Shown piece after piece: positions 334-36,073 of a stretch of DNA of 40,535 nt (position 1 is the first letter of the stretch; the number at the start of each line of letters is the position of its first letter). The DNA lies in assembly GCA_032185465.1 (NCBI GenBank), contig GCA_032185465.1_4549.1; one strand, given 5' to 3'. The stretch comes from a phage. A program made the position numbers and the translations under genes. Below the pieces are notes generated by a model, which was given only the letters and a program-made list of their open reading frames with translations, made no database searches and had not been told where the DNA came from.

Positions 334-1355
334 AGTGCGCCAGCCGCTTCAGGACGCAGACCACCGTGACCCATAGCGTATTTACCAACAATCAGGTCGC
401 CCTGAGCATCGACGTCACGGTCACGTTCCAGCGCCAAGTCACGCAGCTTAACAGTACCCACAGCAGAACGGTGAGAGAACAGGCCCACAACGTTGTCCAG
501 AGCAACTTTAACATCACCAGTAGCGGTAGCTGGGAATGCGTGCTTCTGACCAGTCGCAATAGTGATGCCATCAGCACCACGAGTTTCACCAGCACCGCCC
601 TGAGTCAGGTGTGGAACTTCAACAACAACAAAGCCCATTACGTTACGGATGTTACCAGTCTCCGGGTCAATCAGCGCAGCATAGTTAGCAGCATTCGGCA
701 TCAGAGCAGCGAGGATTGCAGAGTAGTTGTCAGGCGTGGTGTAGAAGTAACGGTCGCCAGCAGGAACGTAGTTGGAGGTCAGCTTCGCACGAGCAATGGT
801 AAGTTGCCCAATGATTGCTTCACCCAGTTTAGCCGGGGTGTTGAGGTCAGCTTTCTTGCCTACTTCAAGTACGGACGCAGTGCCAAGACCAGCAATATTC
901 TCGTTGGATGCAGCTGGTAGGTTACACAGGATAGCCATTTCAGCCAGAACAGCACCATCAGCAGCGATAGCCAGAGCTTCACCCAACTGATTGGAATATT
1001 CGCCAGCCACGTCATAGTGGTTCATCGCGTCTTCAATGTCGAAAATCATCACATCGGCAGTCAGCAGACCATCAATGGTAATCACTTTCTCGGTATGTTT
1101 GATACCTTTACGCTTATCGGACAGTCGCTCACCCGGAGCCAGATACACACCAGAGGTGCGACCCATGACCGGGAACTGAGCAGACTTACCGTTCTGAATG
1201 GTACGGACAATATGCTTGTCAGCAGTTACAGAGCGGCGAGTGAATGCGGTCAGGACTTCACCAGCAAATACCTTCAGGAACAACGCCAGAGCGTCGGAAC
1301 TGGATTTGCCTTTACCTTGGTCTGTACCAATTTTCTGACCCGGAACGTTTGCCAT
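306..1355 (-). CDS. major capsid protein (T7 gp10A-like)
   Basis: 349 aa; near full-length similarity to recalled T7 gp10A (KHTEKVITIDGLLTADV, AILAALMPNAANYAALIDPE, HRSAVGTVKLRDLALER, KYAMGHGGLRPEAAG). ATG at 1355. Confidence 0.97.
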   Translation of the reverse strand: MANVPGQKIGTDQGKGKSSSDALALFLKVFAGEVLTAFTRRSVTADKHIVRTIQNGKSAQFPVMGRTSGVYLAPGERLSDKRKGIKHTEKVITIDGLLTADVMIFDIEDAMNHYDVAGEYSNQLGEALAIAADGAVLAEMAILCNLPAASNENIAGLGTASVLEVGKKADLNTPAKLGEAIIGQLTIARAKLTSNYVPAGDRYFYTTPDNYSAILAALMPNAANYAALIDPETGNIRNVMGFVVVEVPHLTQGGAGETRGADGITIATGQKHAFPATATGDVKVALDNVVGLFSHRSAVGTVKLRDLALERDRDVDAQGDLIVGKYAMGHGGLRPEAAGALVFSPAAAG

Positions 1356-1481: not shown

Positions 1482-2366
1482 CTACAGGCTTGAGGCAGCT
1501 ACCTTAGCGCGAACTTCCATCGTGTATTTAGCGTCACGCAGGTATCGCGGGTCACTCATAGCCTTAATCATGTCAGCCTTGGAGCTGAATGCTTCGGTCT
1601 GAGGAGCCTTAGGTGCGACCACAGGTTTAGCCTGAGTGGTGATGGTACGCTGAGGTTTAACACCCACAGCTTTACTCAGAGTCTTGCCAGCCAGATTCAG
1701 CAGAGCTTTGGTAGTCGCAATGTCCTTACGAACGATGGCAGCTTCCAATGCTTCACGAGTTGACGGGTCGTTGGACTCAAGGTGTGACAGGATGCGATTA
1801 AACTGTTCAGCACCACCAGCGTAGCGAACCACACCAGCGGCATACTGTTCAGCCAGAGCTTCCTGACCACGGACAAACGAATCTACGAAACGCTTGGTGT
1901 AACCTGCTTCCTGCAACTTAGCGTAGGATGCGTCAGACAGCTTACCGTCCTTGGCGTATTCAGCCTTGATAGCGGTAATTTCATCAGCAGTGACCTTGCC
2001 AGCTTCTACAGCAGAAGACACCATGTCGTCAAATGCAGCTTCGTTTTCATCCAGAGCGGTGACACTTTCAGTCAGCTCTTTCGGTGCATCACCTAGTTCG
2101 ATGAACTCAGGCTGCTCACCATCGGTCTCAGACTCTTCGTCATCGGACTCGTGGTCTTCTTCACCTTCAGTCTCGTCGACGTTATCGTCTTCTTCGGTAG
2201 CCTCTTCGGTTTCAGCTTCCAGTTGCTTGAAGGTAATAGCATCGTCGCCATCACGAACCGATACGTCCTGTTCAAGCATAGACTTCTGGTGTTCGTTCAG
2301 GTCCTCAACGGAACCAGTGATTGCATTAGAGCTAACGCCGAACTCGGCATAAACTGATTGAGACAT
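1482..2366 (-). CDS. capsid assembly (scaffolding) protein, gp9-like
   Basis: 294 aa, highly acidic; conserved C-terminal KAMSDPRY and AKLQEAGYTK..FVDSFVRGQEALAEQY blocks as in T7 gp9; between portal and capsid. Confidence 0.9.
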   Translation of the reverse strand: MSQSVYAEFGVSSNAITGSVEDLNEHQKSMLEQDVSVRDGDDAITFKQLEAETEEATEEDDNVDETEGEEDHESDDEESETDGEQPEFIELGDAPKELTESVTALDENEAAFDDMVSSAVEAGKVTADEITAIKAEYAKDGKLSDASYAKLQEAGYTKRFVDSFVRGQEALAEQYAAGVVRYAGGAEQFNRILSHLESNDPSTREALEAAIVRKDIATTKALLNLAGKTLSKAVGVKPQRTITTQAKPVVAPKAPQTEAFSSKADMIKAMSDPRYLRDAKYTMEVRAKVAASSL

Positions 2367-2444
2367 TGAGTCATTCTCCTTTAAGTTGATGATAGGAACC
2401 GACCGGGAGTCTCACCCGGCCTAATGCTTTGTGAATCTTGTCTA

Positions 2445-2467
2445 AGTTCCTATAGTGATAGTTTAGG
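2445..2467 (-). promoter_or_regulatory. phage RNAP promoter (phi9-like): CCTAAACTATCACTATAGGAACT
   Basis: Consensus -17..-1 match; between portal stop and scaffold start. Confidence 0.8.
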
Positions 2468-4031
2468 CTTGAGCCATGTCCTCACCAGCTCCCTGACCTA
2501 CAGCAGCACCCATGTTAGCACCAGCAGCACTAGCACCTTGGACAACTGCCTGTTGAGACGACTGCTCAGCCATGCGCTGAATCTTCTCGTCTTGCGTCAG
2601 GAGTAGGCCAGCGGTGTCGATACCCAGAGCGTTCAGGAGTCGCAGCTTAAGGGTCGGCAAATTGATGTCCGGGTCCTGAGATAGCGGCTGAAGACCAGTC
2701 ATCATGTTAACCGCCTGAGTCAGCTTCTCCAAGTCCTGACCACGGCCCAGAGCTTCCAGACCAGTTGAGACAGTAGGCTCTACCGCTTCTTTCGGAAGGT
2801 CAGGAATCATGCCAGCAGACTGAAGTTGGTTCATCAGCACACGGACGATAGGTAACTGAAGCTCTTGGGATTGTACTGAGTACACGCCACCTAAGGTCGC
2901 CTCCAGTTCGCCAGCAACATAACGAATCTCTTCAGCAGTGACTCTCTCGGCATTACGCTGAACAGCACTATTAAGAAGGAAGGCCCAGCCTAAACGTTGC
3001 TCGATAGCATCAGCCACCGACTTGGCAATCGTAAAGTCCTGACCCTTAGTCAGTTGCAGGAAGTTGATGTCCTCAACGCGACCAGCAACGAACTCACCTG
3101 TAGCCGCCTTGTTCAGACGACGAGGTTGCGTGATACCGTTCGGGTTAACGAGGCCCACCACCTTGGAGGCTACCTTAGCCATTTTGGTGATAGCTTCTGT
3201 AATCGTCTCCAGCGAGTTCAGGTCCCCCAGATACTCCTCGCAGTAAGAACGACCATAGTCTTCACCATCCAGTCGAACCATTCGTACCGGGATGTATGGA
3301 CATGCAGTCAGTGGGTAGGAACCCTCTGTCCCTGCTACCTCAATGCCTTCCACTTCCTCATAACGTAGATACTCGTCGTCTTGACGGTAGATGTGCGTAT
3401 ATACTTCCAGCTCTGTGTCAGGCTCATAGTCGTCTGCGTTGAGTTGTGACTTAACGTCTTCCGGTAGAGCACTAAACGCTACCTTGTCGAGAGTCACAAT
3501 CTGCAAGATATTACCGAAAGCATCACGTTGAACAACGTAGGACACTAAGCGGTACATTCGCATAGGACTGTAAGTACCTTGTTCAGGCTCTGGAATGTAG
3601 AGCAGACAGTTACCGGAGACGATAAGCTGCTTCAGAGCTTCGAACAATGGGACACGGAAACTGTTAGTCTCCATGTAGGCCATCAACACACGCTCGACCA
3701 TAGCCAGCCCTTCGTCAACACGAGCAGCAGCCTCTGAGTCCTGACTCAAGGTCTTGGCCTCATATTCGGAGACTGTCAGTCGCATCCACGGTGACTGAGG
3801 GAATAATGCCAACATCAGCTTTGCAGCCAAGTTGTTCAAACAGCGAGCACCTACAGCTTGCCACGGAGTTGTGTACTCAGTAGACGAGTTGTCGGACTCC
3901 TTAGGAAACAGTGACGGGATAGTGACAGCAGCACAGTTCTGAGCGCGTGTCTCATATGGCTGTCTACCGTTCTTCAGTCGGTCATAAACCGCTTTGGCTC
4001 CTTCAGCAGCGAACCCTTCACGTTCAGCCAT
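2463..4031 (-). CDS. portal (head-tail connector) protein, gp8-like
   Basis: 522 aa; strong similarity to recalled T7 gp8 (YETRAQNCA, PWQAVGARCLNNLA, YRLVSYVVQRDAFGN, RLDGEDYGRSY). Confidence 0.97.
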   Translation of the reverse strand: MAEREGFAAEGAKAVYDRLKNGRQPYETRAQNCAAVTIPSLFPKESDNSSTEYTTPWQAVGARCLNNLAAKLMLALFPQSPWMRLTVSEYEAKTLSQDSEAAARVDEGLAMVERVLMAYMETNSFRVPLFEALKQLIVSGNCLLYIPEPEQGTYSPMRMYRLVSYVVQRDAFGNILQIVTLDKVAFSALPEDVKSQLNADDYEPDTELEVYTHIYRQDDEYLRYEEVEGIEVAGTEGSYPLTACPYIPVRMVRLDGEDYGRSYCEEYLGDLNSLETITEAITKMAKVASKVVGLVNPNGITQPRRLNKAATGEFVAGRVEDINFLQLTKGQDFTIAKSVADAIEQRLGWAFLLNSAVQRNAERVTAEEIRYVAGELEATLGGVYSVQSQELQLPIVRVLMNQLQSAGMIPDLPKEAVEPTVSTGLEALGRGQDLEKLTQAVNMMTGLQPLSQDPDINLPTLKLRLLNALGIDTAGLLLTQDEKIQRMAEQSSQQAVVQGASAAGANMGAAVGQGAGEDMAQA

Positions 4032-4042
4032 TCGTCACCTCC

Positions 4043-4291
4043 TTAAATAGAAATACCGCCACCAGAGGTGCGAGAGACCTGAAGGCTACGCTTACCGGAA
4101 CGCTTCACTTTCTTCTCATCAGATGCGGTTGCTTCAGTATCCACATCCTCCACTTTGTCGTTCGGTACTTCCACTGGTGCTGCTGGGGTCTTAGCCTCAA
4201 CAACCTTAGGCGCGTCATCAGAGCCAAGACCAACGGTCCCTAACGTACTTTTCACCACTTTCTTGAAGGCCTTACTGATTGATTTACCCAC
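4043..4291 (-). CDS. gp7.3-like virion (tail assembly/adsorption) protein
   Basis: 82 aa, MGKSISKAFKK...SGGGISI matches recalled T7 gp7.3 ends. GTG start with AAGGAG 7 nt upstream. Confidence 0.8.
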   Translation of the reverse strand: MGKSISKAFKKVVKSTLGTVGLGSDDAPKVVEAKTPAAPVEVPNDKVEDVDTEATASDEKKVKRSGKRSLQVSRTSGGGISI

Positions 4292-6923: not shown

Positions 6924-7521
6924 CTTTCTGTATTCTCCCATTACTGGAAGTGTCGGACTATATCATCAGTCTTTGAGGTGACTGTCTGGCGCTTCGGGTT
7001 ACGTGGGAATCTCACCCACGGCCCTACTCCTTTCGGATAGTCTCTACGCCTTCCACTCTCTAATCCACCCACAGGCGGCTGAGAACGACACATTGAATAT
7101 TTCGGCTAACTTCGTTCCAGTACACCCAGTCTCTACCCAGTAGTCTCGTGCTTCTAGCTTCCTAGCAGCGTATCGCTCTTTGTTGGTCTTGACTAAGTGT
7201 GAGTCCCGGTCTAATACTTGTAGATGTTCGACGTTGCAACAAGCTCTATTACGACACTTGTGGTCTACTTCGAAACCGTCAGGTATTGGACCATTAGCTT
7301 TAATCCATACAGTTCTATGATACATCTCAAGGACACCGTTAGTCCTCTTTCGGAAGTATCCATCCTGATTCAATTTATGTGACGTAGGGATTATGCAGCC
7401 AGTCTCAGTGGCCTCAAGAATTAACTTCTTGCCTCTCATACATCCTCCCTATGGCTTGGCTCGGTATTGTCCCATTAGGAGTTCACCGAGTTCACCAGAT
7501 TTAATGTGCACCATGATGTTA
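6924..7521 (-). mobile_element. putative group I intron in the DNA polymerase gene, carrying an HNH homing endonuclease ORF
   Basis: 598 bp separating ...AYMAWVH (followed by in-frame TAA) from DELQIAC..., i.e. splitting the conserved HDE motif. Exon 1 ends in T and the insert ends in G, as expected for group I splice sites. Intron secondary structure not verified. Confidence 0.6.
7044..7439 (-). CDS. HNH homing endonuclease (inside the polymerase insertion)
   Basis: 131 aa with HNH motif HRTVWIKANGPIPDGFEVDHKCRNRACCNVEHLQVL; ATG at 7439. Confidence 0.85.
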   Translation of the reverse strand: MRGKKLILEATETGCIIPTSHKLNQDGYFRKRTNGVLEMYHRTVWIKANGPIPDGFEVDHKCRNRACCNVEHLQVLDRDSHLVKTNKERYAARKLEARDYWVETGCTGTKLAEIFNVSFSAACGWIREWKA

Positions 7522-23265: not shown

Positions 23266-23445
23266 ATGCTACATACCTCCTGTATCTATGGTCGGTGACT
23301 ATCTATATTGGAGGGATTATGATTAATATCACCCTCCTTCCATCGGTGCAAGCCTTAGGTAAGAACTCGGAGTCTGCCTCCTAAGGTCTTGCATAAAGTC
23401 TGCATATGTATATTCACTACAGTAATACTATAAGTAACCGGGGGT

Positions 23446-23468
23446 CTTCCCTATAGTGATAGTTAAGT
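23446..23468 (-). promoter_or_regulatory. phage RNAP promoter near the right genome end (phiOR-like): ACTTAACTATCACTATAGGGAAG
   Basis: Consensus match about 100 bp after the large terminase stop. Confidence 0.8.
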
Positions 23469-23562
23469 CCAAACTCCTTATAAAACAGTAGGTTAGACTG
23501 GTAGTAACTATAGGTTACTAACTGCGTATTCATGCAGCTTTCACCCATAGTTATTCATTCAG

Positions 23563-25329
23563 CTAGTGGAACGTAACGTAGGACCCTAGTCCCAGCTCGT
23601 CGTCCGTATCGTGAGTTACCCGGACCCCATTGTCCCAGAACTCAGTGTGGATGGACTCGAAGCCTTTCCGTGGGTTCTCCATCTGTTCCTCCAGCCACTC
23701 CTCAGTGACTTCACGTTCGCCTTTGTTGGCATCCTTAGCCATAGACTCAACGAAGAACTGCACACCGATAGCCAGCGCATCAAGTCGGTCATCGTGTGCC
23801 AATGCTCCACGTTCACGAGAGATACGTGTCATCTGGTAGAAGAGAGAGTAGATAGGATTACGAACACCATCCTTATCAGAGGCAGACTGGTAATCTTGGA
23901 CGATAGCAGCAGCGTTAACGATAAGTCGGTGAGACCCCATGATAGGCTCCAGAACGTCACAGATGCGGAGTTCCTTCTGACCCTTACTCTTCACTTCAGT
24001 TACAGCAGCAGGATGAATACGGGAAGCTACAGGCTTGAATAGCTCAAGGTACATACCATCACCGAAGTTACCCTCAATGACGTATTCGTTGACCTTCCAC
24101 TTACGACCAATCTTAGCCAAGGCTTCCAGCGTAGAGTCTTCATAGCCACCTCGCATACCGCCAACTTCCATAGCGAAGATGTAGCCGTTTAGCTGGTACA
24201 GTACCGCATAACCAGTTTCATCCTTACCACGACCACTAGGGTCAATGACTAGAATCTTCTGGGTGTATGAGCTGAAGGCAGAACCTACAGTCTGATACGT
24301 GTGGTATGAGTCACCCATGAGTCCAACGTTAGGAACGTCCTCACGCTTGTTCTGAGGGTTAGGAAGCCATTGGTATATCATTGGGCTAGACGCTTGGTCC
24401 AAGTCTGCTACGATAAGGTCACGGAGCTTCAGAGGGTACTTCTCGGCATCACTCAGGTTAGGGTTAAGCATGAACTGTAGAGCGAAGCCAGCTTTGCCAT
24501 AGGACAACTCACGTTCCTTCAGGTCCGTATCATCGAATCGTACTTCATCGGTAGGACGCCAGTAGAAGGACTCAGGGTCCTCTTCCAGCTCTGCCTGAAG
24601 CATAGGAGCCAGACGGTCGCCGTAAGACTGCCAGTCCTTCTTATCACGTGGATAACGAGCAGGCCAGATAGTAGTGGTGTATCCACGGCCTTCCAGCTCA
24701 CGATACAAGGTCATCTCATTCTGAGGAGTACCCAGATAGATGATTGTACCTCCCGGCTTCAGGATAGCGTCGAACTCTTTCACAAGCTCTGACAGACGGT
24801 CTCGTGCGGCCTGAGTCGCTGAGTTGTTCGGAACCTCCACGTCATCAGCAATCAGGATGTCAGCACGACTACCAGTCAGCTGACCAGTGATACCAACGGA
24901 CTTAACCGAAGGTGAGTGGTCTGGCTTAGCTGGCCCAACGTCAAAGCTGATAACAGCATCTCGCTGCCCCTGCTTAGGTTTGAGTTCCTGAAGCTGAGGC
25001 ATGAGGTCGATGATTCGCTTGATGAAGATGGAGTTCGCATCGGCTCGTTCCTTTGAGGCCGACACAATCATGAACTTCAAGTCTGGGTTGTTCCATAGCT
25101 TCCAGACCACAAAGCCACAGGTCAGAAACGACTTGCCAATACCACGGAAAGCCTGAAGGATGAAGCGGCGATTATCACCAGCAGCCAGCTTCTTACACAT
25201 ATCTATCTGGCAGCGGGTTGGAACCGGAAGGCTTAGTGCTTTCCAGAGAACGAAGATGAAGAACACGAAGTCGTCCCTCATCCTTTGGGTCATTTCTGCC
25301 TGTCTTTCAGCAGGTGTTTTCTTAGACAT
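23563..25329 (-). CDS. terminase large subunit, gp19-like
   Basis: 588 aa; near full-length colinearity with T7 gp19 ([116 protein letters not shown]). Confidence 0.98.
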
Positions 25330-25759
25330 AGAGTCCCTCCAGCATTAGGTCCCGGACAGCGATAGCCTCCTCTAGAGTGGGACGTGTTGTGCGCATATAG
25401 ACATTCCCGCGTTTAACCTGAATCCTATAACCATTCTGGTGACGGGTAACGCACTTCACTCCAGTCTTAGAGTCATAATGGCTACCAGTATTCCAAGTGT
25501 TTTCGGCGGCAGTAACGAGCCGTAAGTTACTTAAGGTATTATTGATGGGGTTCCTGTCGATGTGGTCTATTTGCATACCATGCGGTATAGGACCATTGGT
25601 TAGTTCCCATATCACACGGTGTGCCCGCTTACTGCCTAGACTTCGTGTCTGTACTATCCAATATCCCATCCGACTTAATGTCCCCACAGGCTTTCCAGTC
25701 CTAACGGAGACCAGACCGGAGGGACTCGCCGGGTCCACTTTGTAGTAATCACTTAACAC
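25322..25759 (-). CDS. HNH homing endonuclease with C-terminal AP2-like DNA-binding domain
   Basis: 145 aa; [41 protein letters not shown] then [30 protein letters not shown] start; overlaps the Rz stop and the terminase start. No T7 gene lies between 18.5 and 19. Confidence 0.85.
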
Positions 25760-26186
25760 CTTGGAGCCTCCTTATTGTGTCCTGAAGCGCCTTCTCCTTA
25801 AGGTCTGCCTCCTGAGTTATTCGGATAAGACTTTTAGAAGTTTCTGGGTGTAGTTCGACTCTACCATTAGGGAAGCATCGACTGATATCCGACTCGGTGA
25901 GACCTGAGGTGTTGACTTTGACGCGCAGCCGCTTATTGTCAGACTGAAGGTCAGCAATAATCCTATCAGTGCTGCCTTCCAACGAGGACATTTCGTCCTG
26001 AAACCGTTTGGACACTTTGTTGACTTCAGCTTGGACAGCAAGCCTTGTATCTTCCGATGCCTTAAGATTCGAGGTGTATTCTGCATTGACCTTAGCCTCC
26101 CACTTATTGTTAGCGGTGTGGTAGCCACCAGCAAACATCACTGCTGCAAGTAACCACGGAGCCGCTCTCTTTAAAAATTCGAGCAT
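25749..26186 (-). CDS. i-spanin (Rz, gp18.5-like)
   Basis: 145 aa; N-terminal membrane anchor then coiled-coil-like charged region; after small terminase, with embedded Rz1. Confidence 0.85.
   Translation of the reverse strand: MLEFLKRAAPWLLAAVMFAGGYHTANNKWEAKVNAEYTSNLKASEDTRLAVQAEVNKVSKRFQDEMSSLEGSTDRIIADLQSDNKRLRVKVNTSGLTESDISRCFPNGRVELHPETSKSLIRITQEADLKEKALQDTIRRLQGVK
25817..26086 (-). CDS. o-spanin (Rz1, gp18.7-like) embedded out of frame in Rz
   Basis: PRWKAALIGLLLTFSLTISGCAS... with lipobox LTISGC and C-terminal SLMVE motif, colinear with recalled T7 gp18.7. Start set to ATG 26086; track ORF extends to 26134. Confidence 0.8.
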   Translation of the reverse strand: MQNTPRILRHRKIQGLLSKLKSTKCPNGFRTKCPRWKAALIGLLLTFSLTISGCASKSTPQVSPSRISVDASLMVESNYTQKLLKVLSE

Positions 26187-26244
26187 AGTTGCCCTCCCGG
26201 TTTATCAGATTTCACGTAGAGTTGCCTCCACTAGTTAGTGTTAA

Positions 26245-26285
26245 CCATAAAGGCCACTACATATAGTAATGACCTTGAGTCTAAC
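26245..26285 (-). promoter_or_regulatory. conserved RNA hairpin, putative RNase III site (R18.5 position)
   Basis: Third copy of the aaaggccac...tgaccttgagtct motif, in the 100-bp gap between small terminase and Rz. Confidence 0.5.
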
Positions 26286-26287
26286 AC

Positions 26288-26551
26288 TTATTGAACACCA
26301 TACCCGGTGTCATTATCCTCAGTCGCTGAAAGCACCTTATCGTACTCTGCGTTCAGGGCCTCCATATCAGCCAGCGTCTTCTCGTCCACAGACACCTTGC
26401 TTAACACAAAGTTGTGACGAGCCAGTAGCTTCTCAATGGCGTTGTAAAGCTGAGGTGAACGCTTAGTGTCATCCCGCAGGTCTTGCAGCATGAGTCGAGC
26501 ACGTTCAGTATCTAGCATTAAGAGGAACTTCTCTAAGCCCATCTGCGTCAT
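26288..26551 (-). CDS. terminase small subunit, gp18-like
   Basis: 87 aa; FLLMLDTERARLMLQDL..RSPQLYNAIEKLLARH colinear with recalled T7 gp18. Confidence 0.9.
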   Translation of the reverse strand: MTQMGLEKFLLMLDTERARLMLQDLRDDTKRSPQLYNAIEKLLARHNFVLSKVSVDEKTLADMEALNAEYDKVLSATEDNDTGYGVQ

Positions 26552-26742
26552 GTTTTACCACCTCCTTTAATCGTTTTGTAGACTAGCACACCAATCTGGA
26601 CAACGGTGTACGCGATAGCTGCAACGTAGAACCATTCGTTTAGTGTAAGTCCGAAGAAGAACCGACTGGCACCATCAGCCGCAGCGGTCCCGACGATAGG
26701 AGAGGCTTTAAGGACCTCATTCTTGAAGTCTAACTCAATCAT
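26548..26742 (-). CDS. holin, gp17.5-like
   Basis: 64 aa; ASPIVGTAAADGASRFFFGLTLNEWFYVAAIAYTVVQIG nearly identical in pattern to T7 gp17.5. Confidence 0.9.
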   Translation of the reverse strand: MIELDFKNEVLKASPIVGTAAADGASRFFFGLTLNEWFYVAAIAYTVVQIGVLVYKTIKGGGKT

Positions 26743-26873
26743 AAAACCTCCAGTTTAAAGCGGGTCGTCCGTGACCCAAAGTTGTTACATACGTTGGTTA
26801 GCGTGTAGTTAGTCTCTACCCTCGTCAGTGTGTTCAACGATTTCATTGTGCGAAAATGCCGTACCAGTATTAC

Positions 26874-29405
26874 TCACTTAGACATAACAGCTAATGCTTC
26901 CTGCATACGCTTAATAGTACGCCGCATCAACGCAGCCTCTAATATCAGTACTTCCTCGTAACGAATACCGTAGCGGGAACCTGCTGGTGTAATCAGTTTA
27001 CGAGAGCCATCGGCATCTTCCTCGTATACATCATCCCAACTGTCGAAGCACAGGAAGCCATAGCGATGTGCATCTATACCGTGACGTTCGAAGGCCTCCT
27101 TAGCTCGCTGTGCGATGATGCCGAAGTGCCATCTAGCTGAGTCTGCACCCTTCTCCTCAATTCGGTCCAAGTACTGAAACTGCACAAAGTCAACTTCAGA
27201 CCAAGCATCCAGTAAAGCATCTGAGATATTAAGGGGCTCTGTTTTATCCCTAGCATCTGAGACAACAGTGAATGCTGCTTGAGTAAAACCGCCAGACCAT
27301 GTTCGACTTGCGGAACCTAATGCGTATGTATTAGTACTATCTGGGGTCATTGCATTAGAACCTAACTGCAAATAACCTGTGCTACTGGTAGGAAGACGCA
27401 CGTTACCGTTGGTGAGTGATACTGTCCGAGAAGTACCATCAGAAGTAAATAGGCGAACTTGAGAAGAAGTACCCCCGCCTACAGCTAATGACACAGCACC
27501 ATCCCCAAGCATTCTGTACTTATCAGCCGAGGTAAGAACGCCTGACGGAAGTGACATGGACTTAATCCACCATTCGAACCTACCGGACATACTGCCTATG
27601 TACTGTCCTAATGCAGGAGCGTGCACTACGTTGCTATTACTAGTGCCGTCAATAGTAGCTGCATCGGTAATAGTACTAGCAGAGCTGAGAAGGTCATTTC
27701 TACTACCAGGGTGCTTTACCTCTACGAAGTTACGGGTAGAGCCGGATTCGAAAGTAATAACACCTGTAGCACTGTAGCTAGGAAATACAGACGCATAGTT
27801 GTTATTAGCTGTACCTATAAAGCGCGCAATTGTAGCAGTCTGCCCTTGTCCTAAAGAGTTAGTACCATCACATCCTGACATAAGCACATTATTTATGACG
27901 TTATCAGACCCCTCTACGGTAACACCATGAGCCTGTCTAGCATCAGAAGTTGAGTAATCTACTAGCACGTCTGAGATTAAGTTCGTACTTCCTTTGCCTG
28001 CAACAACCGCTGCATACTTAGGGTTATTAGCCATCACACCCTTGATAAGGTTATTAGAAGGAGCTATTGGCCCTTCAGTGCCGTTGTAAGTTACATGCTG
28101 GCAATCTGCCCCTATAACATTACTTACTATGTTATAACTGGCTGTACCTTTCAGCTCTACGGCTCCGAAATTAGGGTAGTTCTTAGCAATGACGTTATCT
28201 ATGAGGGAGTTAACTGAGGAGTTAGCAAGTACGCATCCGGCTGCCTTATTAGTAGCATAGCCGGAGTAGCTACCTCGAATGCCTTTAATCATAAGCCCAT
28301 TAGGTTGCGCACCATTAGGGTATGCTATTAAACTGAAACCAGTACCTTTAACGTTTGAGAAGTTAACGTCACTTACAGTAACATCACTGCCACCAGCAAG
28401 AGATACCTGCTGTCCCTGAGTAGTATCAGTCGCCTTATTACTTTCTACCGTAATATTACTTAAGCGACCTGCACGTAGATTGTTAAATACTAAGTAGTTA
28501 CCTGTACTGGAACGGTGACTTAGAACGCCACTACCCCTACCGTCTAAGTTACAGTAATTACTATTAATACCAGAACTAGAGAATACACCGTCTGATGCTA
28601 CGACAGCTTTTTGAGAATTTAGTGAAGCAGCTATATTCTCCGTACTATCTGTTACACCATCCCCTTTAGCACCCCAGCCTCGAACATCACCCTCATCACG
28701 CCATCTTGCCATCTGCAATTCCGGGTAGAGTATTGCACCTTCCGGGTTTGAAATCTGACTTCTTAAAGCAGCATCACCAACACTAACCCACGCACCTAAT
28801 CCAATCCCACCGGAAGTTTCAGGAGTTGAACCAGCAGGAACGTTCTTTGGAAGCGTACCATCCCAGCGGTAATAATCACCATCCTCTTCCCATAGCAGGA
28901 CCTCGCTCCATGTTGTAACGTTGTAGCCTTTCTCGAAGGAGCGACGGGTAATATAGCCAATTAGACCAGCTTCCCTGATACTCTCAGCGATTCGGCGTGC
29001 TTCGTCCTCGCTATCCTTAGCGTTGCCAGCAGAGCTACCAGCAGCATCGGCATATTCCTTCGCTAAGTCAACCGTTTGGTCTCGACCTTCTTCTGCAATA
29101 TGGATAGCCTGAAGCTCTGAATTGGTCAGGTCACTAGCTGTCAACACTGAGCCATTCCTGAAGTCTACCACTAAGTCAGTTCCAGTCTGACGGTGAATAC
29201 GAACGATGTCGAAACCTGATTGGTCAACCAACATCTCAATCATCGTTGGGTTAAGGAATCGGTAATCTCGACCAACTTCCAGTACACGGTTCAGGGTAGG
29301 GTTAGAGCTATTCACCAGCGTAACAACAACAAACGTTCTGGCTAGGTAGTCGAACTCAATCCTGTACTGAGTGTTTCCTGAAGGGAATTGTGTAATCGTG
29401 GACAT
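26874..29405 (-). CDS. tailspike: T7 gp17-type N-terminal adaptor, central enzymatic (beta-helix-like) domain, C-terminal self-cleaving chaperone
   Basis: 843 aa; N-terminal 150 aa colinear with T7 gp17 (FDYLARTFVVVTL, VDFRNGSVLTASDL, AIHIAEEGRD). Central region is Gly/Ser/Asn/Thr-rich as in depolymerase beta-helices. C-terminus has the SDARDK auto-cleavage motif of the peptidase S74 chaperone. Confidence 0.93.
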   Translation of the reverse strand: MSTITQFPSGNTQYRIEFDYLARTFVVVTLVNSSNPTLNRVLEVGRDYRFLNPTMIEMLVDQSGFDIVRIHRQTGTDLVVDFRNGSVLTASDLTNSELQAIHIAEEGRDQTVDLAKEYADAAGSSAGNAKDSEDEARRIAESIREAGLIGYITRRSFEKGYNVTTWSEVLLWEEDGDYYRWDGTLPKNVPAGSTPETSGGIGLGAWVSVGDAALRSQISNPEGAILYPELQMARWRDEGDVRGWGAKGDGVTDSTENIAASLNSQKAVVASDGVFSSSGINSNYCNLDGRGSGVLSHRSSTGNYLVFNNLRAGRLSNITVESNKATDTTQGQQVSLAGGSDVTVSDVNFSNVKGTGFSLIAYPNGAQPNGLMIKGIRGSYSGYATNKAAGCVLANSSVNSLIDNVIAKNYPNFGAVELKGTASYNIVSNVIGADCQHVTYNGTEGPIAPSNNLIKGVMANNPKYAAVVAGKGSTNLISDVLVDYSTSDARQAHGVTVEGSDNVINNVLMSGCDGTNSLGQGQTATIARFIGTANNNYASVFPSYSATGVITFESGSTRNFVEVKHPGSRNDLLSSASTITDAATIDGTSNSNVVHAPALGQYIGSMSGRFEWWIKSMSLPSGVLTSADKYRMLGDGAVSLAVGGGTSSQVRLFTSDGTSRTVSLTNGNVRLPTSSTGYLQLGSNAMTPDSTNTYALGSASRTWSGGFTQAAFTVVSDARDKTEPLNISDALLDAWSEVDFVQFQYLDRIEEKGADSARWHFGIIAQRAKEAFERHGIDAHRYGFLCFDSWDDVYEEDADGSRKLITPAGSRYGIRYEEVLILEAALMRRTIKRMQEALAVMSK

Positions 29406-29451: not shown

Positions 29452-29474
29452 GTTTCCTATAGTGATAGTTTAGT
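29452..29474 (-). promoter_or_regulatory. phage RNAP promoter (phi17-like): ACTAAACTATCACTATAGGAAAC
   Basis: Consensus match overlapping the gp16 stop, upstream of the tailspike gene. Confidence 0.8.
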
Positions 29475-32400
29475 CCTTGATGTGGATACCTTGCTCCTCA
29501 AACGTTCCCAGTAGCAACTTCTGAGTAATCGGGTCGTTCGGAACCAGTTCACGGAACGTATTATACATCCCGGTCATGTAGTCACGCTCGTTGACACGAG
29601 TATCAGCCTTGAGGTAGCCAGCCAAGTTGTATGCCGAAGCGCCAACGTTAGCAGCATAGCCGAAAGCCGGGACCTGCTCCAAGAAGTTACCAACGACATT
29701 CATCACAGGGTCACTTGTAGCCGCACCATATGAGATGGCACGTTCGGGTTTCTCTGTAGGTGAACGCGGGAGGATAGACGAACGGAGCATCTTAGTGTCC
29801 TCATACCCAGCGATGCCACCTAGAATGTTAGCTACCCCAAGTGGTCCACCCAGATGTGAACTACGGGACAGGGCCGCATAGCCAATCATCGTTGGGTCCA
29901 GAGCTTGCTTGAGATAATCTCGGTCTCGACCGTCCTGCATAGCGTAAGCCTTGACGTGCGCCTGAGCCATGTAGTAGATACCAGCCAGACCCATAGACAT
30001 CACAGTAGACAGTGCAGCGTCCATCGCTCGGTTGTTCTTCGTGGCGTTATAGAATGTTCGCATGGTTCGACCATTGATGGACTTGATGACGAAGTTCTTA
30101 AACTGAAGGACAGTCTTAGCGAGAGGACCATAAGCCTTGGCGTTCATGTTGGACAGCTTATGAGGACGGAGTAACGTTTCATCTGCGATGGTGTCACCCA
30201 TACGCCACAGGTCCATAGCCCTTGGGTCCTGACTGAACGCCTTCTTATCCTTGATGGTGTACTTCCCGTCTGGACCACGAGTCACTGACTCACGGATGAG
30301 GGACTTAATGCCCTTCCACTGCTCGTCAGAGATACCAGCGGTCTTAAGCCAGCGGTCATCGAACTTACGCTTACTACCAGTCAGGCTATGCTCCACGATG
30401 TCAGACAGGAAGCCTTGACGTCCAGCATCTAACAGGTAGTTGGTCGTACCGTTGAGGACTTTAGTGAACGGAGAGCGTACTGCAAGTTCGCCAGTGTAAT
30501 ACTTGGCAGTCCCCAGAGCTGTAGCTGTACCACGACCGAGGTCACTGTAAGATCGCAGACGGTCAATGACATCCTGTTTAGACGGACGGATTGAGTCATC
30601 AAGTTCCTTACCGAAGAGAACATTGTGAAGGTCCTTAATCTCTGAGGCTCCGACCTTCTTGTTACGGAAGGCTAGGTCACGGAACATCGGGACTCCATGA
30701 AGCATTGCACGAACGTTACCGCGAGCCAGCATACCACCAATCTCCGTTAAGTTCTGAACACCCATATAGGCATTCTTAGCGAAGAACGCTAGGTCTGTCA
30801 TTGTGCGCATCACGGCAGCGAAGGCTGCATCGTCAGCCCCATCACGTCGAGCACGACCAGTTAGAATCTTCAGGGTGTCACGCAAGGTAGATACTTCACC
30901 TTTCAACTTACCGTCATCCCCAGCCTTGTTCATCATGGTCTCAACCAAGTCCTTCATGTCCTTCGTGGTTTTGCCTGTACCAGCCATGATAGCAATATCG
31001 CCATTAACTCGACGGTTGTAGGCCGGGACAATCTTGTCCATGTCCCACTCACGAAGGTTGTTGACACTGAAGGTCTGACCGTTAGGTAGGACGATTGACA
31101 TATCGCTATCGAACAGGTTACGAGCCTCAAGGAAGCTGTTGTTCTCCAGACCAACCAGACCGTTGATGTTCTCTTCCATTACGGATGAACGTTCGAACTG
31201 CTCGGTGTGGGAGATGCCGTAAGCCTTATCGTTGGCGTACTTATCGACCGCAGCCGCAAGTCCTTCTGGAGTCAACGTAGGGTCAGACTCTAAGAGTGCC
31301 TCGTCCACGCGTTTCTTGACTTCAGGTCGAGACGCATAGCTAGTCAACCATGACTTCTTGATGGCCTCCTGCAACGCCTCTGGACTCCCAAGCTCCTTGG
31401 TGTACAGCTCCTTCATCTGTTTGCTATACACATGAGGGACGTATGTTCCCTTGAAGCGGCTACCCGGAAAGATAGACTGAGCGTCTGGACGACCAAACAT
31501 AGCTGGGTTCTCCATCATCTCACGCTTGGCGTCAAACTGGTTCTTCAGCAGGTCATAGACTTTAAGTTCTCCCGGAGTCAGTTCAGCCTTCAGGTTTCCG
31601 CTGCCATCTTCGATAGCCATAGACACGCGCTGGTAGATGTCCTGACGGAATGCTCCAGAGTCTCGCCAGAATGCTGTCTGTAAGTACGGGTCCTTGAGCG
31701 CCTCAGTAACCGCATCGTCGATGTCGTTGTAGAACCGATGGTCCACAGCACGAAGTCTCTCGAATACGTCTGACGCAGTGGTCCCGATTTTACCTGAGGC
31801 CCCAGACTGCATACCAGTCGGTGAACGTACTAAGTCAGCAGCTACTCCACGAATCTCAGGGTTCTCAGACCGAAGCAGCTTCAGGCCAATCTCGGTAAGT
31901 CCACCAAGGTTTACACCAGCAGCGGCACGTTCTGGCTCAATCACTTCGTCAAAGACTTGACGTGTCTTAGGGTTCAGAGGGTTCTCACCAATCAGGATTG
32001 AACCATCTTCAAGTCGTACACTACCCGGCTCATTCGGAACGTCAGCGAACTTAACGCCTTGATGACTAAAGGTCTGCTCACCTTCCTGAATAGGTAGACG
32101 AGACAGGTCCTGACCATCAACGTTACGAGCAGTCTCACGAGCTTCCAGACGTGTAGCTGGACCAGCAAACTCATTAGTGTTGCGGCCTAAGGCTCTGCCT
32201 AACCCATCAGCGATGGCAGTCATACCACCACCAAAGAGAGCACCACCAAGGATAGCTTCAGACACATGAGCATCACCACCCGCCACTGAGGTACGGGCCA
32301 TCTCTGATACACCAGCAAGTGCTCCAGATTGAGCAGCCACGGTGAACATCTTGTTGACCAGCTTCGCACCTTTGCCAACCTGTCCAGCGATAGGAACGTA

Positions 32401-33357
32401 GGTCAGCGGGTCTACACCAGCACCAATCACACCAGCTGCTAACTGAGCACCAGTCCCAGCCTTGGCCTTCTCTTGGTCCAACTTCTGGTTCTCAAGCGCT
32501 AAGTTAATAAGCTCGGTCAGGTTCTGAGGGGAGCCACCAGTAATGACACCGTAATACTGAGGAAGAACCCCAGCGTTACGAATCTGGTCCAGCTCCTCGC
32601 GAGTCCACTTATGGTTGTTCCAGCGGGTCGGGTTGAACACATCGCCAATGACATCAAGTGAGTCCTCGGTCTGACCAGCGCGGATAGCCACGCCGACCAT
32701 AGAGTTCTTCACTTCAGCTTCTGTAGCCGAGCCGAAACCGAACCACGTAGAGCGATCCTCTCGTTCCTGCATGGTCTCGCCAGTAGACTTATAGAACATC
32801 TCACCGAACGATTCGTTGGGAGCTTCAGGTGCTTGACCCTCAATGTTTAGACCAGCAGCGGTCGGAAGGTTCTCACCCAGAGCTACTTTAGGTTTAGCCT
32901 TGAGTCCTTCCGTGAGTGCGTCAAATACGTTAGCGCTTACTGGTGGAGTCTTTGGGCTGATACCGTTGAGTGCTCTTGCGACTCCCTGCTGATAGACTTC
33001 AGGATTGTACCGGGAGCCTGTCTCATGGAAGCTAATAGCTTGCGCCAGAGCAGACAGGGTGTCCGGGTTCGATAGGTCGAGACTTTGGGTAGCTGGAATA
33101 CCAGTTGCAGCCACCACTGAGTCGATATAAGCCTTAGTGTCGTTCTCGTTAGGAGGTGCCCATCGGTTGATAATCTTCTCGATGGAGTCATAGCCTTGGC
33201 GACCGTAGGACAGCAGGTTTTTACCTAAAGCTCGGACGCCAGACTCTGGACTATCGAAGATAACGAAATCGCCATCATCACCTATAGCACCTTCCCATTG
33301 GTCTTTGGACTTACGGATGTTCCCGGGGTTTGAGTTCCTTACTCCACGTGTCGCCAT
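29470..33357 (-). CDS. internal virion protein D, gp16-like (ejection protein)
   Basis: 1295 aa; long colinear blocks with recalled T7 gp16 (GGSPENL, RLEARETARN, VRSPTGMQSGASGK, RREMMENPA, GTYVPHVY, EARNLFDSD, VNGDIAIMG, KILTGRARR, AMDLWR, LRPHK). N-terminal about 140 aa does not show the T7 SLT catalytic motif. Confidence 0.95.
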   Translation of the reverse strand: MATRGVRNSNPGNIRKSKDQWEGAIGDDGDFVIFDSPESGVRALGKNLLSYGRQGYDSIEKIINRWAPPNENDTKAYIDSVVAATGIPATQSLDLSNPDTLSALAQAISFHETGSRYNPEVYQQGVARALNGISPKTPPVSANVFDALTEGLKAKPKVALGENLPTAAGLNIEGQAPEAPNESFGEMFYKSTGETMQEREDRSTWFGFGSATEAEVKNSMVGVAIRAGQTEDSLDVIGDVFNPTRWNNHKWTREELDQIRNAGVLPQYYGVITGGSPQNLTELINLALENQKLDQEKAKAGTGAQLAAGVIGAGVDPLTYVPIAGQVGKGAKLVNKMFTVAAQSGALAGVSEMARTSVAGGDAHVSEAILGGALFGGGMTAIADGLGRALGRNTNEFAGPATRLEARETARNVDGQDLSRLPIQEGEQTFSHQGVKFADVPNEPGSVRLEDGSILIGENPLNPKTRQVFDEVIEPERAAAGVNLGGLTEIGLKLLRSENPEIRGVAADLVRSPTGMQSGASGKIGTTASDVFERLRAVDHRFYNDIDDAVTEALKDPYLQTAFWRDSGAFRQDIYQRVSMAIEDGSGNLKAELTPGELKVYDLLKNQFDAKREMMENPAMFGRPDAQSIFPGSRFKGTYVPHVYSKQMKELYTKELGSPEALQEAIKKSWLTSYASRPEVKKRVDEALLESDPTLTPEGLAAAVDKYANDKAYGISHTEQFERSSVMEENINGLVGLENNSFLEARNLFDSDMSIVLPNGQTFSVNNLREWDMDKIVPAYNRRVNGDIAIMAGTGKTTKDMKDLVETMMNKAGDDGKLKGEVSTLRDTLKILTGRARRDGADDAAFAAVMRTMTDLAFFAKNAYMGVQNLTEIGGMLARGNVRAMLHGVPMFRDLAFRNKKVGASEIKDLHNVLFGKELDDSIRPSKQDVIDRLRSYSDLGRGTATALGTAKYYTGELAVRSPFTKVLNGTTNYLLDAGRQGFLSDIVEHSLTGSKRKFDDRWLKTAGISDEQWKGIKSLIRESVTRGPDGKYTIKDKKAFSQDPRAMDLWRMGDTIADETLLRPHKLSNMNAKAYGPLAKTVLQFKNFVIKSINGRTMRTFYNATKNNRAMDAALSTVMSMGLAGIYYMAQAHVKAYAMQDGRDRDYLKQALDPTMIGYAALSRSSHLGGPLGVANILGGIAGYEDTKMLRSSILPRSPTEKPERAISYGAATSDPVMNVVGNFLEQVPAFGYAANVGASAYNLAGYLKADTRVNERDYMTGMYNTFRELVPNDPITQKLLLGTFEEQGIHIKD

Positions 33358-33788
33358 GTCTTTCTCCTCAAGATATTTCTAATAGAAACCGTACTCACTC
33401 CATAGCGTTCAGCCAAGAGTGAAACCTTTAGGTCGCTGGACCTTATGTCTCTAACAATGTCTTCCGTTAGTTTAGACACTCCGATTGAGCATCCGGCAGC
33501 TTGCCGACCTCTGGACACCTTATCTTTAATGTTGTCAGCTTGTGTGCCGACTTCAAGATGCTCAGGGTTTACACATGACGGGTTGTCACACTTATGGCGA
33601 ACAACATATCCATCCGGTATTGGACCATGAGCTAGCTCGTAGGCCAGCCTATGCGCTCCGTGTTTAACTCTATTTATCATAATACGACCATATCCGTTCT
33701 TCTCAACACTTCCTATGAAGCGAATACAGCCAGAGTCTTCAGCTACTGACAGTTCTGCCAGTCTCTCACTGGCTGTCCCGTTCTTCAT
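33339..33788 (-). CDS. HNH homing endonuclease between gp15 and gp16
   Basis: 149 aa; HRLAYELAHGPIPDGYVVRHKCDNPSCVNPEHLEVGTQADN; ATG 2 nt after gp15 stop; 3' end overlaps gp16 start. Same family as the intron-encoded HNH. Confidence 0.85.
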   Translation of the reverse strand: MKNGTASERLAELSVAEDSGCIRFIGSVEKNGYGRIMINRVKHGAHRLAYELAHGPIPDGYVVRHKCDNPSCVNPEHLEVGTQADNIKDKVSRGRQAAGCSIGVSKLTEDIVRDIRSSDLKVSLLAERYGVSTVSIRNILRRKTWRHVE

Positions 33789-33790
33789 GT

Positions 33791-36073
33791 TTACTCCTTA
33801 CCTATTAGTGCATTTGCGATACCCTCCAGTGAGACGTCATTGTACATCCCACCGCGCTTCTCGATGTTGGCCTCTCGGTCAGCTCGACGTTTGTCACCAG
33901 CAGCTTTAGTCCCGACGATACGCGCTCGCTTGTTAGCGTCACGTTCTGCCTGAGCATATGCAGCATCTTGTGCCTTCTGCTGTTGTTCGCGGTATAGTTT
34001 ACCTACAAGTTCTTTATCGTATCGAATACGAATAGTCCCTGTAGCGTCTTGGAGGAAGATAGAGCCGTTCTGTTCAACAACGGACAACTGAGAGTTCACT
34101 ACCCAAGGGTTGGCCTTAATGAGCTGCTTACGAGCGGTGTCGATAATGTCTCGACCCACCTGCCACGACTCTGGGTTATCCCCGACCATAAGCTGGTGCT
34201 TGGACACCATGCCGATGGACTTACCGTCAGAACCTTCAGACTGGAACGTTACGGTGTTCTCATTCAGCCAGCGTTGAGTCTGCTGAGTTGCAGCGTCAGC
34301 GTTACCTGTACGATAGTACCATGAGTCCCAGACCTTACGAGCACTTGCGTCCAGAGACGTAGGAAGACGCGAAAGGTCCTTATTCCGAGAGTCATTCTTC
34401 AACTCCTGCCACGCCTTGTCTGACTCCATGCGCATCTCACGGCTTTGACTTGCAGCTTGCTTATCAGCTTCAATCATCGTCTGAGGGTCCAGACCCATCT
34501 TGTCCATCTGGTCGAACGTAGAGAACAACTGAGCTTGGTCAGGATACAGAGCAGAAAAACTTGAAGGGTCCTGAGTGTAGGCACGACGAAGAGATTCGAA
34601 GCGTTGCATCTTGTCTGGGTCGTACTGCCCACGGATGACCGCAGCTTGCCACTCACCAGCAGCGTCCTGAGTCAGCGTCTGGAAGGCATTACGGAACGGA
34701 CCGTTGTTAGTGTCAGCTCTTAATAATGCAACCTTCTGTGCGTCCTTAGCAGCCTCAGGGATGTCCATCTGGTCAATCTGCTGTAGCTTAGCAGACGCAT
34801 AGTTGTTCATGTCTGAACGCTTGAACTCTCCTGTGGCTTCAGAGACCGGAAGGTCCTCATAGTTGGTGGACACGTTGTCTCCAGCCAGACGTCGCTGATA
34901 CACTTGGTCAATGACCAGTTGCTTGTTCTGGGTCTGGATTAACTTCGTGTTCTCCTTCGCCTGTTCAGCAGACTTACGCTTTACCGCTTCCAGTAAGCTG
35001 GCTTCGGCATTAATAAGCATCTGACGCTGAGGTGTGAGTTCTTCACCCGGTTGAAGCAGGTTGTTCTGCTCCTTGAGTTTTTGAATCTGGGCCAGACCGA
35101 TGGTTGGGTCGTCCTGAAGAATCGCAGACTGAACGCCTAACGCTAAGTCTTCCTGATACTTAGCCACCAGCTTGTACTCAGTTCCTTGTGCCTCAACAAT
35201 AGCAGCGTTGAAGACATCAGGTCCTACAATCTCTTCGACTGTAGCATCCACGCCGTTAAGGGTGATTCGCTCGCCTCGTACTTGCTGTAGGAAGTTTGAG
35301 CCGCCTGACTTCTGGATTGCGTCACGTACCGTCTGGGTAATGACATCACGCGCCCGCTGGTCCGAGGGGATAGCAGCAGTAGTCAGTCCATCACGAAGGT
35401 AGGCCATGAATGTCTTGCCAGACTCAGGTGAACGCATCAGGTCGCCATCGTTCAGGAATGAGTTCATCTCAATACGGGTGTTCAACATTGCTGTCTCTTC
35501 AGACTGCTTGCTGAAATACTTATTGAAAGACCCATAGATAGCGATGTTGCGGTCTGTGATGTTATCGTTGAACCCACGCTGGAAGAACTCGTCTGTAGGG
35601 TTAATACCCGCCTCTTCAGCATAGGACTTAGCGGCGTCCTGAAGTCGCTGGTGGCGATACTCTTCCATGTCCTGACGTGTACGGAACTCACCGTTCTGAA
35701 TCTTAACGTTAATCTCGTCGTCTACAGCAAAGGCAGCATTACGACCAGTCTTGACTCGAAGTGCTTCCATAGCGTAAGGGTCATCCTGATACAGCAATGT
35801 GCCGTTCTGGATAGCCTCACGTCTTTGCTGAGGTGTCAGTTTACGGATAATCTCGTTAGACCGCTCGTCAGCTCTGGTCTTCTCCTCGTCCTTGAACTGC
35901 TTGTACAATCCAGTCCCAGACTCAACGAAGTTGGTTAACGCACGAGCCAGACCGGAGTCCCCAGTCGGAGCCTGAACGTTGGCTGCTTGATAGTTGACGG
36001 CGATAGTTTTACCCGGCGCTCTGCCGCGACCCATAGTCCGATTAGCCAGAGCTGATTCAATATTACTAGCCAT
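33791..36073 (-). CDS. internal virion protein C, gp15-like
   Basis: 760 aa; ADERSNEIIRKLTPQQRREAIQNGTLLYQDDPYAMEALRVKTGRNAA and following blocks colinear with T7 gp15. Confidence 0.95.
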   Translation of the reverse strand: MASNIESALANRTMGRGRAPGKTIAVNYQAANVQAPTGDSGLARALTNFVESGTGLYKQFKDEEKTRADERSNEIIRKLTPQQRREAIQNGTLLYQDDPYAMEALRVKTGRNAAFAVDDEINVKIQNGEFRTRQDMEEYRHQRLQDAAKSYAEEAGINPTDEFFQRGFNDNITDRNIAIYGSFNKYFSKQSEETAMLNTRIEMNSFLNDGDLMRSPESGKTFMAYLRDGLTTAAIPSDQRARDVITQTVRDAIQKSGGSNFLQQVRGERITLNGVDATVEEIVGPDVFNAAIVEAQGTEYKLVAKYQEDLALGVQSAILQDDPTIGLAQIQKLKEQNNLLQPGEELTPQRQMLINAEASLLEAVKRKSAEQAKENTKLIQTQNKQLVIDQVYQRRLAGDNVSTNYEDLPVSEATGEFKRSDMNNYASAKLQQIDQMDIPEAAKDAQKVALLRADTNNGPFRNAFQTLTQDAAGEWQAAVIRGQYDPDKMQRFESLRRAYTQDPSSFSALYPDQAQLFSTFDQMDKMGLDPQTMIEADKQAASQSREMRMESDKAWQELKNDSRNKDLSRLPTSLDASARKVWDSWYYRTGNADAATQQTQRWLNENTVTFQSEGSDGKSIGMVSKHQLMVGDNPESWQVGRDIIDTARKQLIKANPWVVNSQLSVVEQNGSIFLQDATGTIRIRYDKELVGKLYREQQQKAQDAAYAQAERDANKRARIVGTKAAGDKRRADREANIEKRGGMYNDVSLEGIANALIGKE

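Follow-up and report, generated by a model that had tools for sequence, protein, structure and literature searches.

What is a small nuclease gene doing between the spanin gene and the large terminase gene of a T7-like phage, where it overlaps both of its neighbours? The question is raised by contig GCA_032185465.1_4549.1 of NCBI GenBank assembly GCA_032185465.1, a stretch of 40,535 nucleotides (nt) that was analysed at its full length and is referred to here as the window. The window belongs to Kayfunavirus (K1F-like, Studiervirinae) in the T7 family and carries the whole phage genome reverse-complemented, so the gene in question lies on the minus strand, at 25322..25759. We consider it probable that this open reading frame (ORF) represents a homing endonuclease gene (HEG) of the free-standing kind, one that combines an I-HmuI-like HNH_3 nuclease with a small AP2-like domain and that is lodged in the translation-initiation region of the Kayfunavirus large terminase gene. 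It is the equivalent of gene 3.8A of Citrobacter phage CR44b and of ORF48 of Hafnia phage Ca.

The gene and its two domains

The ORF list gives the HEG a length of 145 amino acids (aa), a GTG start and a TAA stop, at exactly the coordinates that had been proposed from the letters of the sequence, and both of the overlaps named in that original prediction can be read in the sequence. Upstream, the TGA stop (25749-25751) of the gene for the Rz-like i-spanin, the T7 gene 18.5 equivalent (25749..26186, minus strand; PHROG 1327, E 4.7e-56), falls within the first 11 nt of the HEG, which are also the final 11 nt of the spanin gene. Downstream, the ATG (25327-25329) of the large terminase gene lies 8 nt inside the HEG 3' end, in ATGTCTAA, and the first 8 nt of the terminase gene are thereby common to both. 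The terminase itself (23563..25329, minus strand), a protein of 588 aa and the T7 gene 19 equivalent, matches PF22530 (E 5e-38) and PHROG 38 (E 1e-130). T7 has no gene at this position, as had been remarked at the outset, and a 21-nt gap alone separates its genes 18.5 and 19.

The nuclease half of the protein was recovered well above threshold by a hidden Markov model search, with Pfam HNH_3 (PF13392) scoring 69.7 bits over aa 44-87 (E 1.6e-19; cutoff 24.8) and PHROG 99, 'HNH endonuclease', spanning aa 2-144 (E 8.8e-40). This HNH_3 catalytic core (25499..25630, minus strand) includes H47, D65, H66, N78 and N87, and it is preceded by an N-terminal beta-strand region (aa 1-43; 25631..25759, minus strand) that matches the N-terminal DNA-contacting sheet of I-HmuI. 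I-HmuI (1U3E) is the only solved relative detectable by sequence, and D65, H66, N78 and N87 of the HEG protein align to its D74, H75, N87 and N96 with the same spacing. In an alignment of 21 homologues, no variation is seen at H47, D65, H66, N87 or N90, and N73, N74 and N78 are conserved at 90% or more, and so the HNH nuclease of the original prediction, a call that hinged on the catalytic residues being present, stands. An AlphaFold2 model built from the same alignment is confident (mean predicted local distance difference test score 88) and has the beta-beta-alpha-metal fold of the I-HmuI-like His-Me finger endonucleases. By alignment and predicted structure, the HEG protein is thus a member of the I-HmuI-like HNH_3 family that shares both the catalytic residues and the fold of I-HmuI.

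Homing endonucleases that join HNH and AP2 domains were reportedly described by Magnani et al. in 2004 from phages, cyanobacteria and ciliates. The C-terminal domain of the HEG protein (aa 100-142; 25334..25462, minus strand) is the presumed sequence-recognition domain and is modelled with three beta strands (104-107, 110-117 and 120-126) and one helix (129-140), which is the AP2 topology; in this predicted model a three-stranded antiparallel sheet is packed on a single C-terminal helix, as in the AP2/ERF fold. The Pfam AP2 model (PF00847) has no match in the HEG protein even at E<=10, so the assignment rests on the fold and on homologues. Nine of 21 remoter homologues are matched by PF00847; these AP2-positive proteins share 31-44% identity with the HEG protein, and their C-terminal regions align with its C-terminus. 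When the C-terminal sub-alignment was compared by hhalign, profile to profile, with the AP2-positive homologues, the match was in register but weak (E 0.009, probability 5%). The C-terminal domain may best be described as AP2-like by predicted fold and as related, in shortened and divergent form, to the AP2 domain found in HNH-AP2 endonucleases, and the AP2-type domain claimed at first sight is therefore retained at the level of predicted fold and homologue alignment and not at that of the Pfam AP2 model. The combination of HNH and AP2 domains is a recognised homing endonuclease architecture (PMC10448857).

Alleles, empty sites and flanking exchange

We searched 50,697 phage records with the HEG protein by tblastn and found the gene as two alleles occupying the same site. 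Allele A, at 95-98% aa identity to the HEG protein, was found in 14 records, all listed ones at this site, and its carriers include CR44b, the Salmonella phages CHRF_30030, ST10, ST16 and ST56, vB_EcoP-101118UKE1, TH16 and Hafnia phage yong1. Allele B, at 64-68% identity, was found in about 41 records and lies between Rz and terminase among the records listed; vB_EcoP-101120B2, the Salmonella phages PRF-SP, STP-SP and CRW-SP, CR8, NS1 and RDN8.1 carry it, and the allele B homologue begins with ATG at the codon equivalent to the HEG GTG. Homologues at 44-50% identity adjoin the DNA ligase gene in other T7-like phages. The ratio of nonsynonymous to synonymous substitution rates (dN/dS) is 0.05-0.12 among four allele A copies and 0.20-0.28 between alleles A and B, and the HEG is under purifying selection. 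Because of its HNH_3 and PHROG 99 matches, its conservation in 14 records and this low dN/dS, the ORF is far beyond what chance would give, and it is a real, intact gene.

Homologues at 51% identity were also observed directly upstream of, or overlapping, the terminase start in an IMG/VR contig (IMGVR_UViG_3300030238_000004, at 2089-2517), whose terminase is only 68% identical to that of the window, and in Aeromonas phage PT2 (OM716005). Since these homologues stand before distant terminases, the site ahead of the terminase gene seems to have been reused across genera. Another record, OR786095, is named 'Staphylococcus phage MBBL139' and labelled as a Staphylococcus aureus phage; it has a Kayfunavirus-type Rz-HEG-terminase arrangement with the HEG at 65% identity and the terminase 5' end at 95%, and the host label looks doubtful.

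Close relatives without the HEG show two kinds of empty site. In K1F and ZG49 the terminase gene probably starts with a TTG that runs into the Rz stop as TTGA, and in IME177, pO2 and GA2A the Rz and terminase genes share an 11-nt overlap (GTGGCGAATAA). A short GTGGCG motif, found at or near the empty junctions of both the IME177 type and the K1F type, was considered as a possible GC-rich target of the AP2 type; it is too short for such a claim, and we make none.

Other relatives retain only the ends of the gene. In R1, Penshu1 and KM02, all that is left of the HEG is its first 23 nt (GTGTTAAGTGATTACTACAAAGT) and last ~31 nt (GGACCTAATGCTGGAGGGACTCTATGTCTAA), joined at GGACC. The intact HEG has two copies of GGACC spaced 384 nt apart, one upstream (25732..25736, minus strand) at the left end of the 384-nt deletion in these three phages and one downstream (25348..25352, minus strand) at its right end, and the shared remnant is most readily explained as a microhomology-mediated internal deletion. 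Ro45lw has another junction, with 19 nt of the 5' end fused to ~52 nt of the 3' end, which points to a second, independent deletion, and the HEG has by these comparisons been lost at least twice. With five relatives lacking the gene and four keeping remnants of it, the ORF is not a fixture of this position in all related phages, and the comparison with HEG-less relatives that had been proposed along with the original prediction did yield empty sites and remnants between Rz and terminase. A scan of IMG/VR with the terminase returned mostly distant T7-like contigs, of which seven close relatives were informative. The HEG is dispensable, since some isolated relatives do without it and others, isolated as plaque formers, have lost its interior.

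In three Enterobacter phage records (OP272490-OP272492; phages 01, 02 and 03_vB_Eclo_IJM) and in PQ039555, allele B was recovered by tblastn in 2-4 pieces. This suggests that these copies are frameshifted or decaying and may represent another stage of gain and loss.

The sequences flanking the gene carry a mark of exchange. We compared positions 23500-26900 with the relatives in 100-nt bins, and identity was mostly 90-100% save for a divergent patch centred on the HEG, which extends over 25100-25900 in K1F and ZG49 (54-76% identity), over 25400-25900 in the allele B genomes (about 55-66%) and over 25700-26100 in IME177 (65-91%). The nearest database genome over window positions 1-25000, which end before the HEG, is that of the HEG-less IME177, at 95.4%. 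An IMG/VR contig (IMGVR_UViG_3300045988_000036) has, within 1644-4264, allele A (96% aa identity) next to a 99% identical terminase and an Rz gene that is 76% identical, and the same HEG beside a divergent Rz indicates a recombination breakpoint at the HEG 5' edge. Within the sample examined, a single version of the terminase 5' end accompanies both HEG alleles, and the K1F-type 5' end is always HEG-less. Taken together, the flank divergence and the allele linkage form the pattern that would be expected of homing with co-conversion of the flanks. Nuclease genes are known to mark exchange boundaries, and HEGs have a hot spot upstream of terminase genes (PMC10448857). The HEG has the genomic properties of that class, being present sporadically among close relatives, between conserved genes, and coinciding with flank exchange and a mosaic boundary. 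The early view of a free-standing mobile endonuclease in the packaging module is thus supported by the patchiness of the gene, its two alleles, its homologues at other sites and the local patch of divergence.

A probable homing gene in the terminase start and the competing explanations

How, then, does such a gene sit in the start of an essential one? The HEG has a Shine-Dalgarno (SD) sequence, AAGGAGG (25767..25773, minus strand), 7 nt upstream of its GTG and inside the Rz 3' end, as seen in the sequence and in the junction comparison. The HEG-less IME177, pO2 and GA2A have the identical AAGGAGG inside the Rz 3' end, where it is followed 4 nt later by the GTG of the terminase. In the window, the sequence gives the terminase an SD of its own, GGAGGG (25335..25340, minus strand), 5 nt upstream of its ATG and within the last HEG codons, and this GGAGGG is kept in all of the remnants (R1, Penshu1, KM02 and Ro45lw). 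Alleles A and B, 66% identical elsewhere, hardly differ over the last ~60 nt of the HEG, and none of the natural deletions reaches into the first 19-24 nt or the last ~30-52 nt of the gene. Both the frozen 3' end and the sparing of the ends follow from the HEG supplying the Rz stop and the terminase SD and start. Judging by the junctions, the HEG separates the terminase coding sequence from its native ribosome-binding site and brings its own replacements for the ends of both neighbours.

The GTG start and tight overlaps had been taken to suggest translational coupling. RNA folding at the two start codons revealed no structure beyond that of shuffled controls (z +0.95 and -0.12) and therefore gives no evidence of ribosome-binding-site sequestration or of obligatory coupling. 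The overlaps are real, but the HEG and the terminase each have a strong SD of their own and no sequestered start is predicted, so that coupling is possible and nothing beyond the overlaps points to it. Expression of the terminase, and possibly of Rz, might go further and depend on the HEG sequence or its translation, with the HEG persisting partly through expression 'addiction' of an essential neighbour. This would explain the end-sparing deletions, the frozen 3' end and the small plaques seen with the deletion in Hafnia phage Ca, though we think it unlikely.

As a homing endonuclease, the HEG protein would act by analogy to I-HmuI and other HNH_3 enzymes as a monomer with a single active site that nicks one strand, its AP2-like domain and N-terminal sheet together reading a recognition site that is long and degenerate. 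During co-infection with a HEG-less relative, the enzyme would recognise the uninterrupted Rz/terminase junction of that relative, or the terminase 5' end nearby, and would nick or cut there; replication would convert a nick into a break, and repair from the HEG-carrying genome would copy the HEG and its flanks into the cut genome. A carrier would itself be protected, its own site having been split by the insertion. The cassette would spare its neighbours by using the AAGGAGG, by providing the Rz stop in its first 11 nt and by holding GGAGGG and the ATG in its last 20 nt.

Several observations weigh against this homing interpretation. The literature searched holds no cleavage, nicking or homing experiment on the HEG protein or a close homologue, and the flanking divergence gives no direction of exchange. 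Base composition gives no sign of recent foreign origin, the guanine-plus-cytosine (GC) fraction being 0.491 in the HEG and 0.499 in the genome, with GC at third codon positions (GC3) likewise the same, and the silence of the Pfam AP2 model counts on the same side. In Hafnia phage Ca (PMC8861465), deleted genomes dominate small plaques and complete genomes large plaques. The presence of the cassette may therefore make a difference to its host, something that a purely selfish model would not foresee.

That plaque pattern also bears on two other explanations of the gene. One is that the protein is a terminase accessory like HK97 gp74 or the HNH protein of GVE2, a packaging component that stimulates concatemer cutting by the terminase and is not mobile. 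HK97 gp74 and GVE2 HNH are likewise small HNH proteins encoded directly upstream of a large terminase, as is the HEG, which also overlaps the terminase gene, and a packaging role was raised by the authors of the Hafnia phage Ca study, where deleted genomes dominated the small plaques (PMC8861465). The patchiness and natural deletions of the HEG speak against such a role, however, as does the lack of any such gene in T7. The terminase, moreover, is of the T7-type PF22530 and not Terminase_1, and with the HEG absent or deleted in many relatives we do not place it in the HK97 gp74 class of terminase-associated HNH proteins; the accessory role is very improbable. The other possibility is that a former HEG has become entrenched or domesticated, homing perhaps inefficiently and being kept since its ends serve the neighbours or its nuclease excludes related competitors, so that its loss is costly. 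We rate this as improbable, even though strong purifying selection, the sparing of both gene ends in all natural deletions, the near identity of the last ~60 nt in alleles that are otherwise 66% identical and the use of the native terminase SD by the HEG, with a replacement SD inside it, would all suit entrenchment, as would the association of small plaques with deleted genomes in the Hafnia phage Ca report (PMC8861465). R1, Penshu1, KM02 and Ro45lw are nevertheless isolated phages with deletions, and in IME177, pO2 and GA2A a direct Rz/terminase overlap suffices. A purely selfish insert would be equally expected to have conserved ends, given selection on its neighbours, and the link to plaque size is an association only.

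A GTG start and overlaps with both neighbours might also be what a chance ORF or an annotation artefact, never expressed, would look like. Against this stand the strong HNH_3 match, the conserved catalytic residues, a dN/dS well below 1, the strong AAGGAGG 7 nt from the start and the ATG that allele B has at the equivalent codon, and we find the idea scarcely credible. A free-standing homing endonuclease gene, shaped to the ends of its neighbours, is the reading that we prefer.

Neighbouring features, other HNH genes and known counterparts

The window looks like a complete Kayfunavirus genome of 40.5 kb, reverse-complemented and circularly permuted, with the genome end just below the terminase and the early genes running on at lower coordinates. 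On the other side of Rz lie the genes for the small terminase (26288..26551, minus strand) and a type II holin (26548..26742, minus strand).

We detected further HNH genes in the window. The DNA polymerase gene (ORF 7519..9573, ending ...AYMAWVH) is apparently interrupted by a group I intron at 6934-7531 (minus strand), which matches Rfam RF00028 over its full length at 35.8 bits (E 4.7e-07), short of the gathering score, which is 50, and which carries a 131-aa HNH_3 ORF (7044..7439, minus strand; E 9.4e-16). A comparable arrangement is that of K1F gp5.3 (PMC4925675). A third HNH_3 gene of 149 aa (33339..33788, minus strand; E 1e-17), with a sub-threshold match to the zf-His_Me_endon zinc loop (23.9 bits where 27 are required, E 5e-05), lies between two large ORFs, 33791..36073 with 760 aa and 29470..33357 with 1295 aa, and shares 19 nt with the start of the second. 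These two ORFs probably encode the equivalents of the gp15 and gp16 internal virion proteins, and by its family and position the gene between them is likely another free-standing homing endonuclease.

The HEG is already known and is an ordinary kind of mobile element. In CR44b (NC_023576), gene 3.8A (YP_009007189) is annotated as 'predicted homing endonuclease' at the same site, and ORF48 of Hafnia phage Ca (vB_HpaA_yong1), published in 2022, is the same gene, its GTG start and both overlaps being described in that paper along with a spontaneous 397-bp deletion of the HEG (PMC8861465). When we sought repeats that could account for this deletion, only a 4-nt TGGA pair was found at that spacing, which is suggestive at most. 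The yong1 record (MK610268) has, at locus ~475-480, an extra T (CCGTTTAGG vs CCGTTAGG) near HEG codon 19 that causes a frameshift; a 3' fragment of 138 nt is all that the record labels 'homing endonuclease', whereas the paper lists a 143-aa ORF. The extra T is either a sequencing error or the sign of a pseudogenised copy.

For annotation, the gene should be entered as an HNH homing endonuclease of the I-HmuI-like kind whose C-terminal domain is AP2-like, the equivalent of CR44b 3.8A, and beyond this it matters little. To the earlier descriptions we add support from the predicted fold for the AP2-like domain, the presence of two alleles at one site, two independent deletions that spare the ends and the swap of ribosome-binding sites. 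With its two alleles, at least two microhomology deletions, two kinds of empty site and tight patch of divergence, the Kayfunavirus Rz/terminase junction is a convenient natural system for the gain-and-loss cycle of phage HEGs. The unexplained plaque-size polymorphism of Hafnia phage Ca may have a simpler reading, namely HEG deletion variants with altered expression of the neighbours. In phage therapy or engineering, the locus is to be regarded as a recombination hot spot and its gene as dispensable.

CR44b 3.8A, Hafnia phage Ca ORF48 and the copies in CHRF_30030, ST10, ST16, ST56 and vB_EcoP-101118UKE1 are 95-98% identical in aa, have the same 145 aa, GTG start and overlaps, and as allele A copies depart from the HEG by point differences only (P10Q, I72S, A134S and a few others). 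CR44b has a second HNH gene, 3.8B (842..1258, minus strand; 138 aa), just downstream of its terminase and ~34% identical to the HEG, whereas the window has only a 43-aa ORF (23417..23548) in that place. I-HmuI of the Bacillus phage SPO1 is an intron-encoded HNH nicking enzyme with 22% identity to the free-standing HEG. Its DNA is recognised by a C-terminal helix-turn-helix, and it is at this position that the HEG protein instead has its AP2-like domain. Closest in architecture is the HNH-AP2 family, including the 'IPA-HNH' HEGs of ICP1, which have the same order of N-terminal HNH and C-terminal AP2 domains. The divergence falls in different halves of these proteins: the HNH domain of ICP1 IPA-HNH is too divergent for the HNH_3 model, whereas the HEG is a canonical HNH_3 protein whose AP2 region, unlike that of its AP2-positive HNH-AP2 homologues, is shortened and too divergent for the Pfam AP2 model. 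Like the HEG described here, HNH-AP2 HEGs tend to adjoin essential genes, terminase included (PMC10448857).

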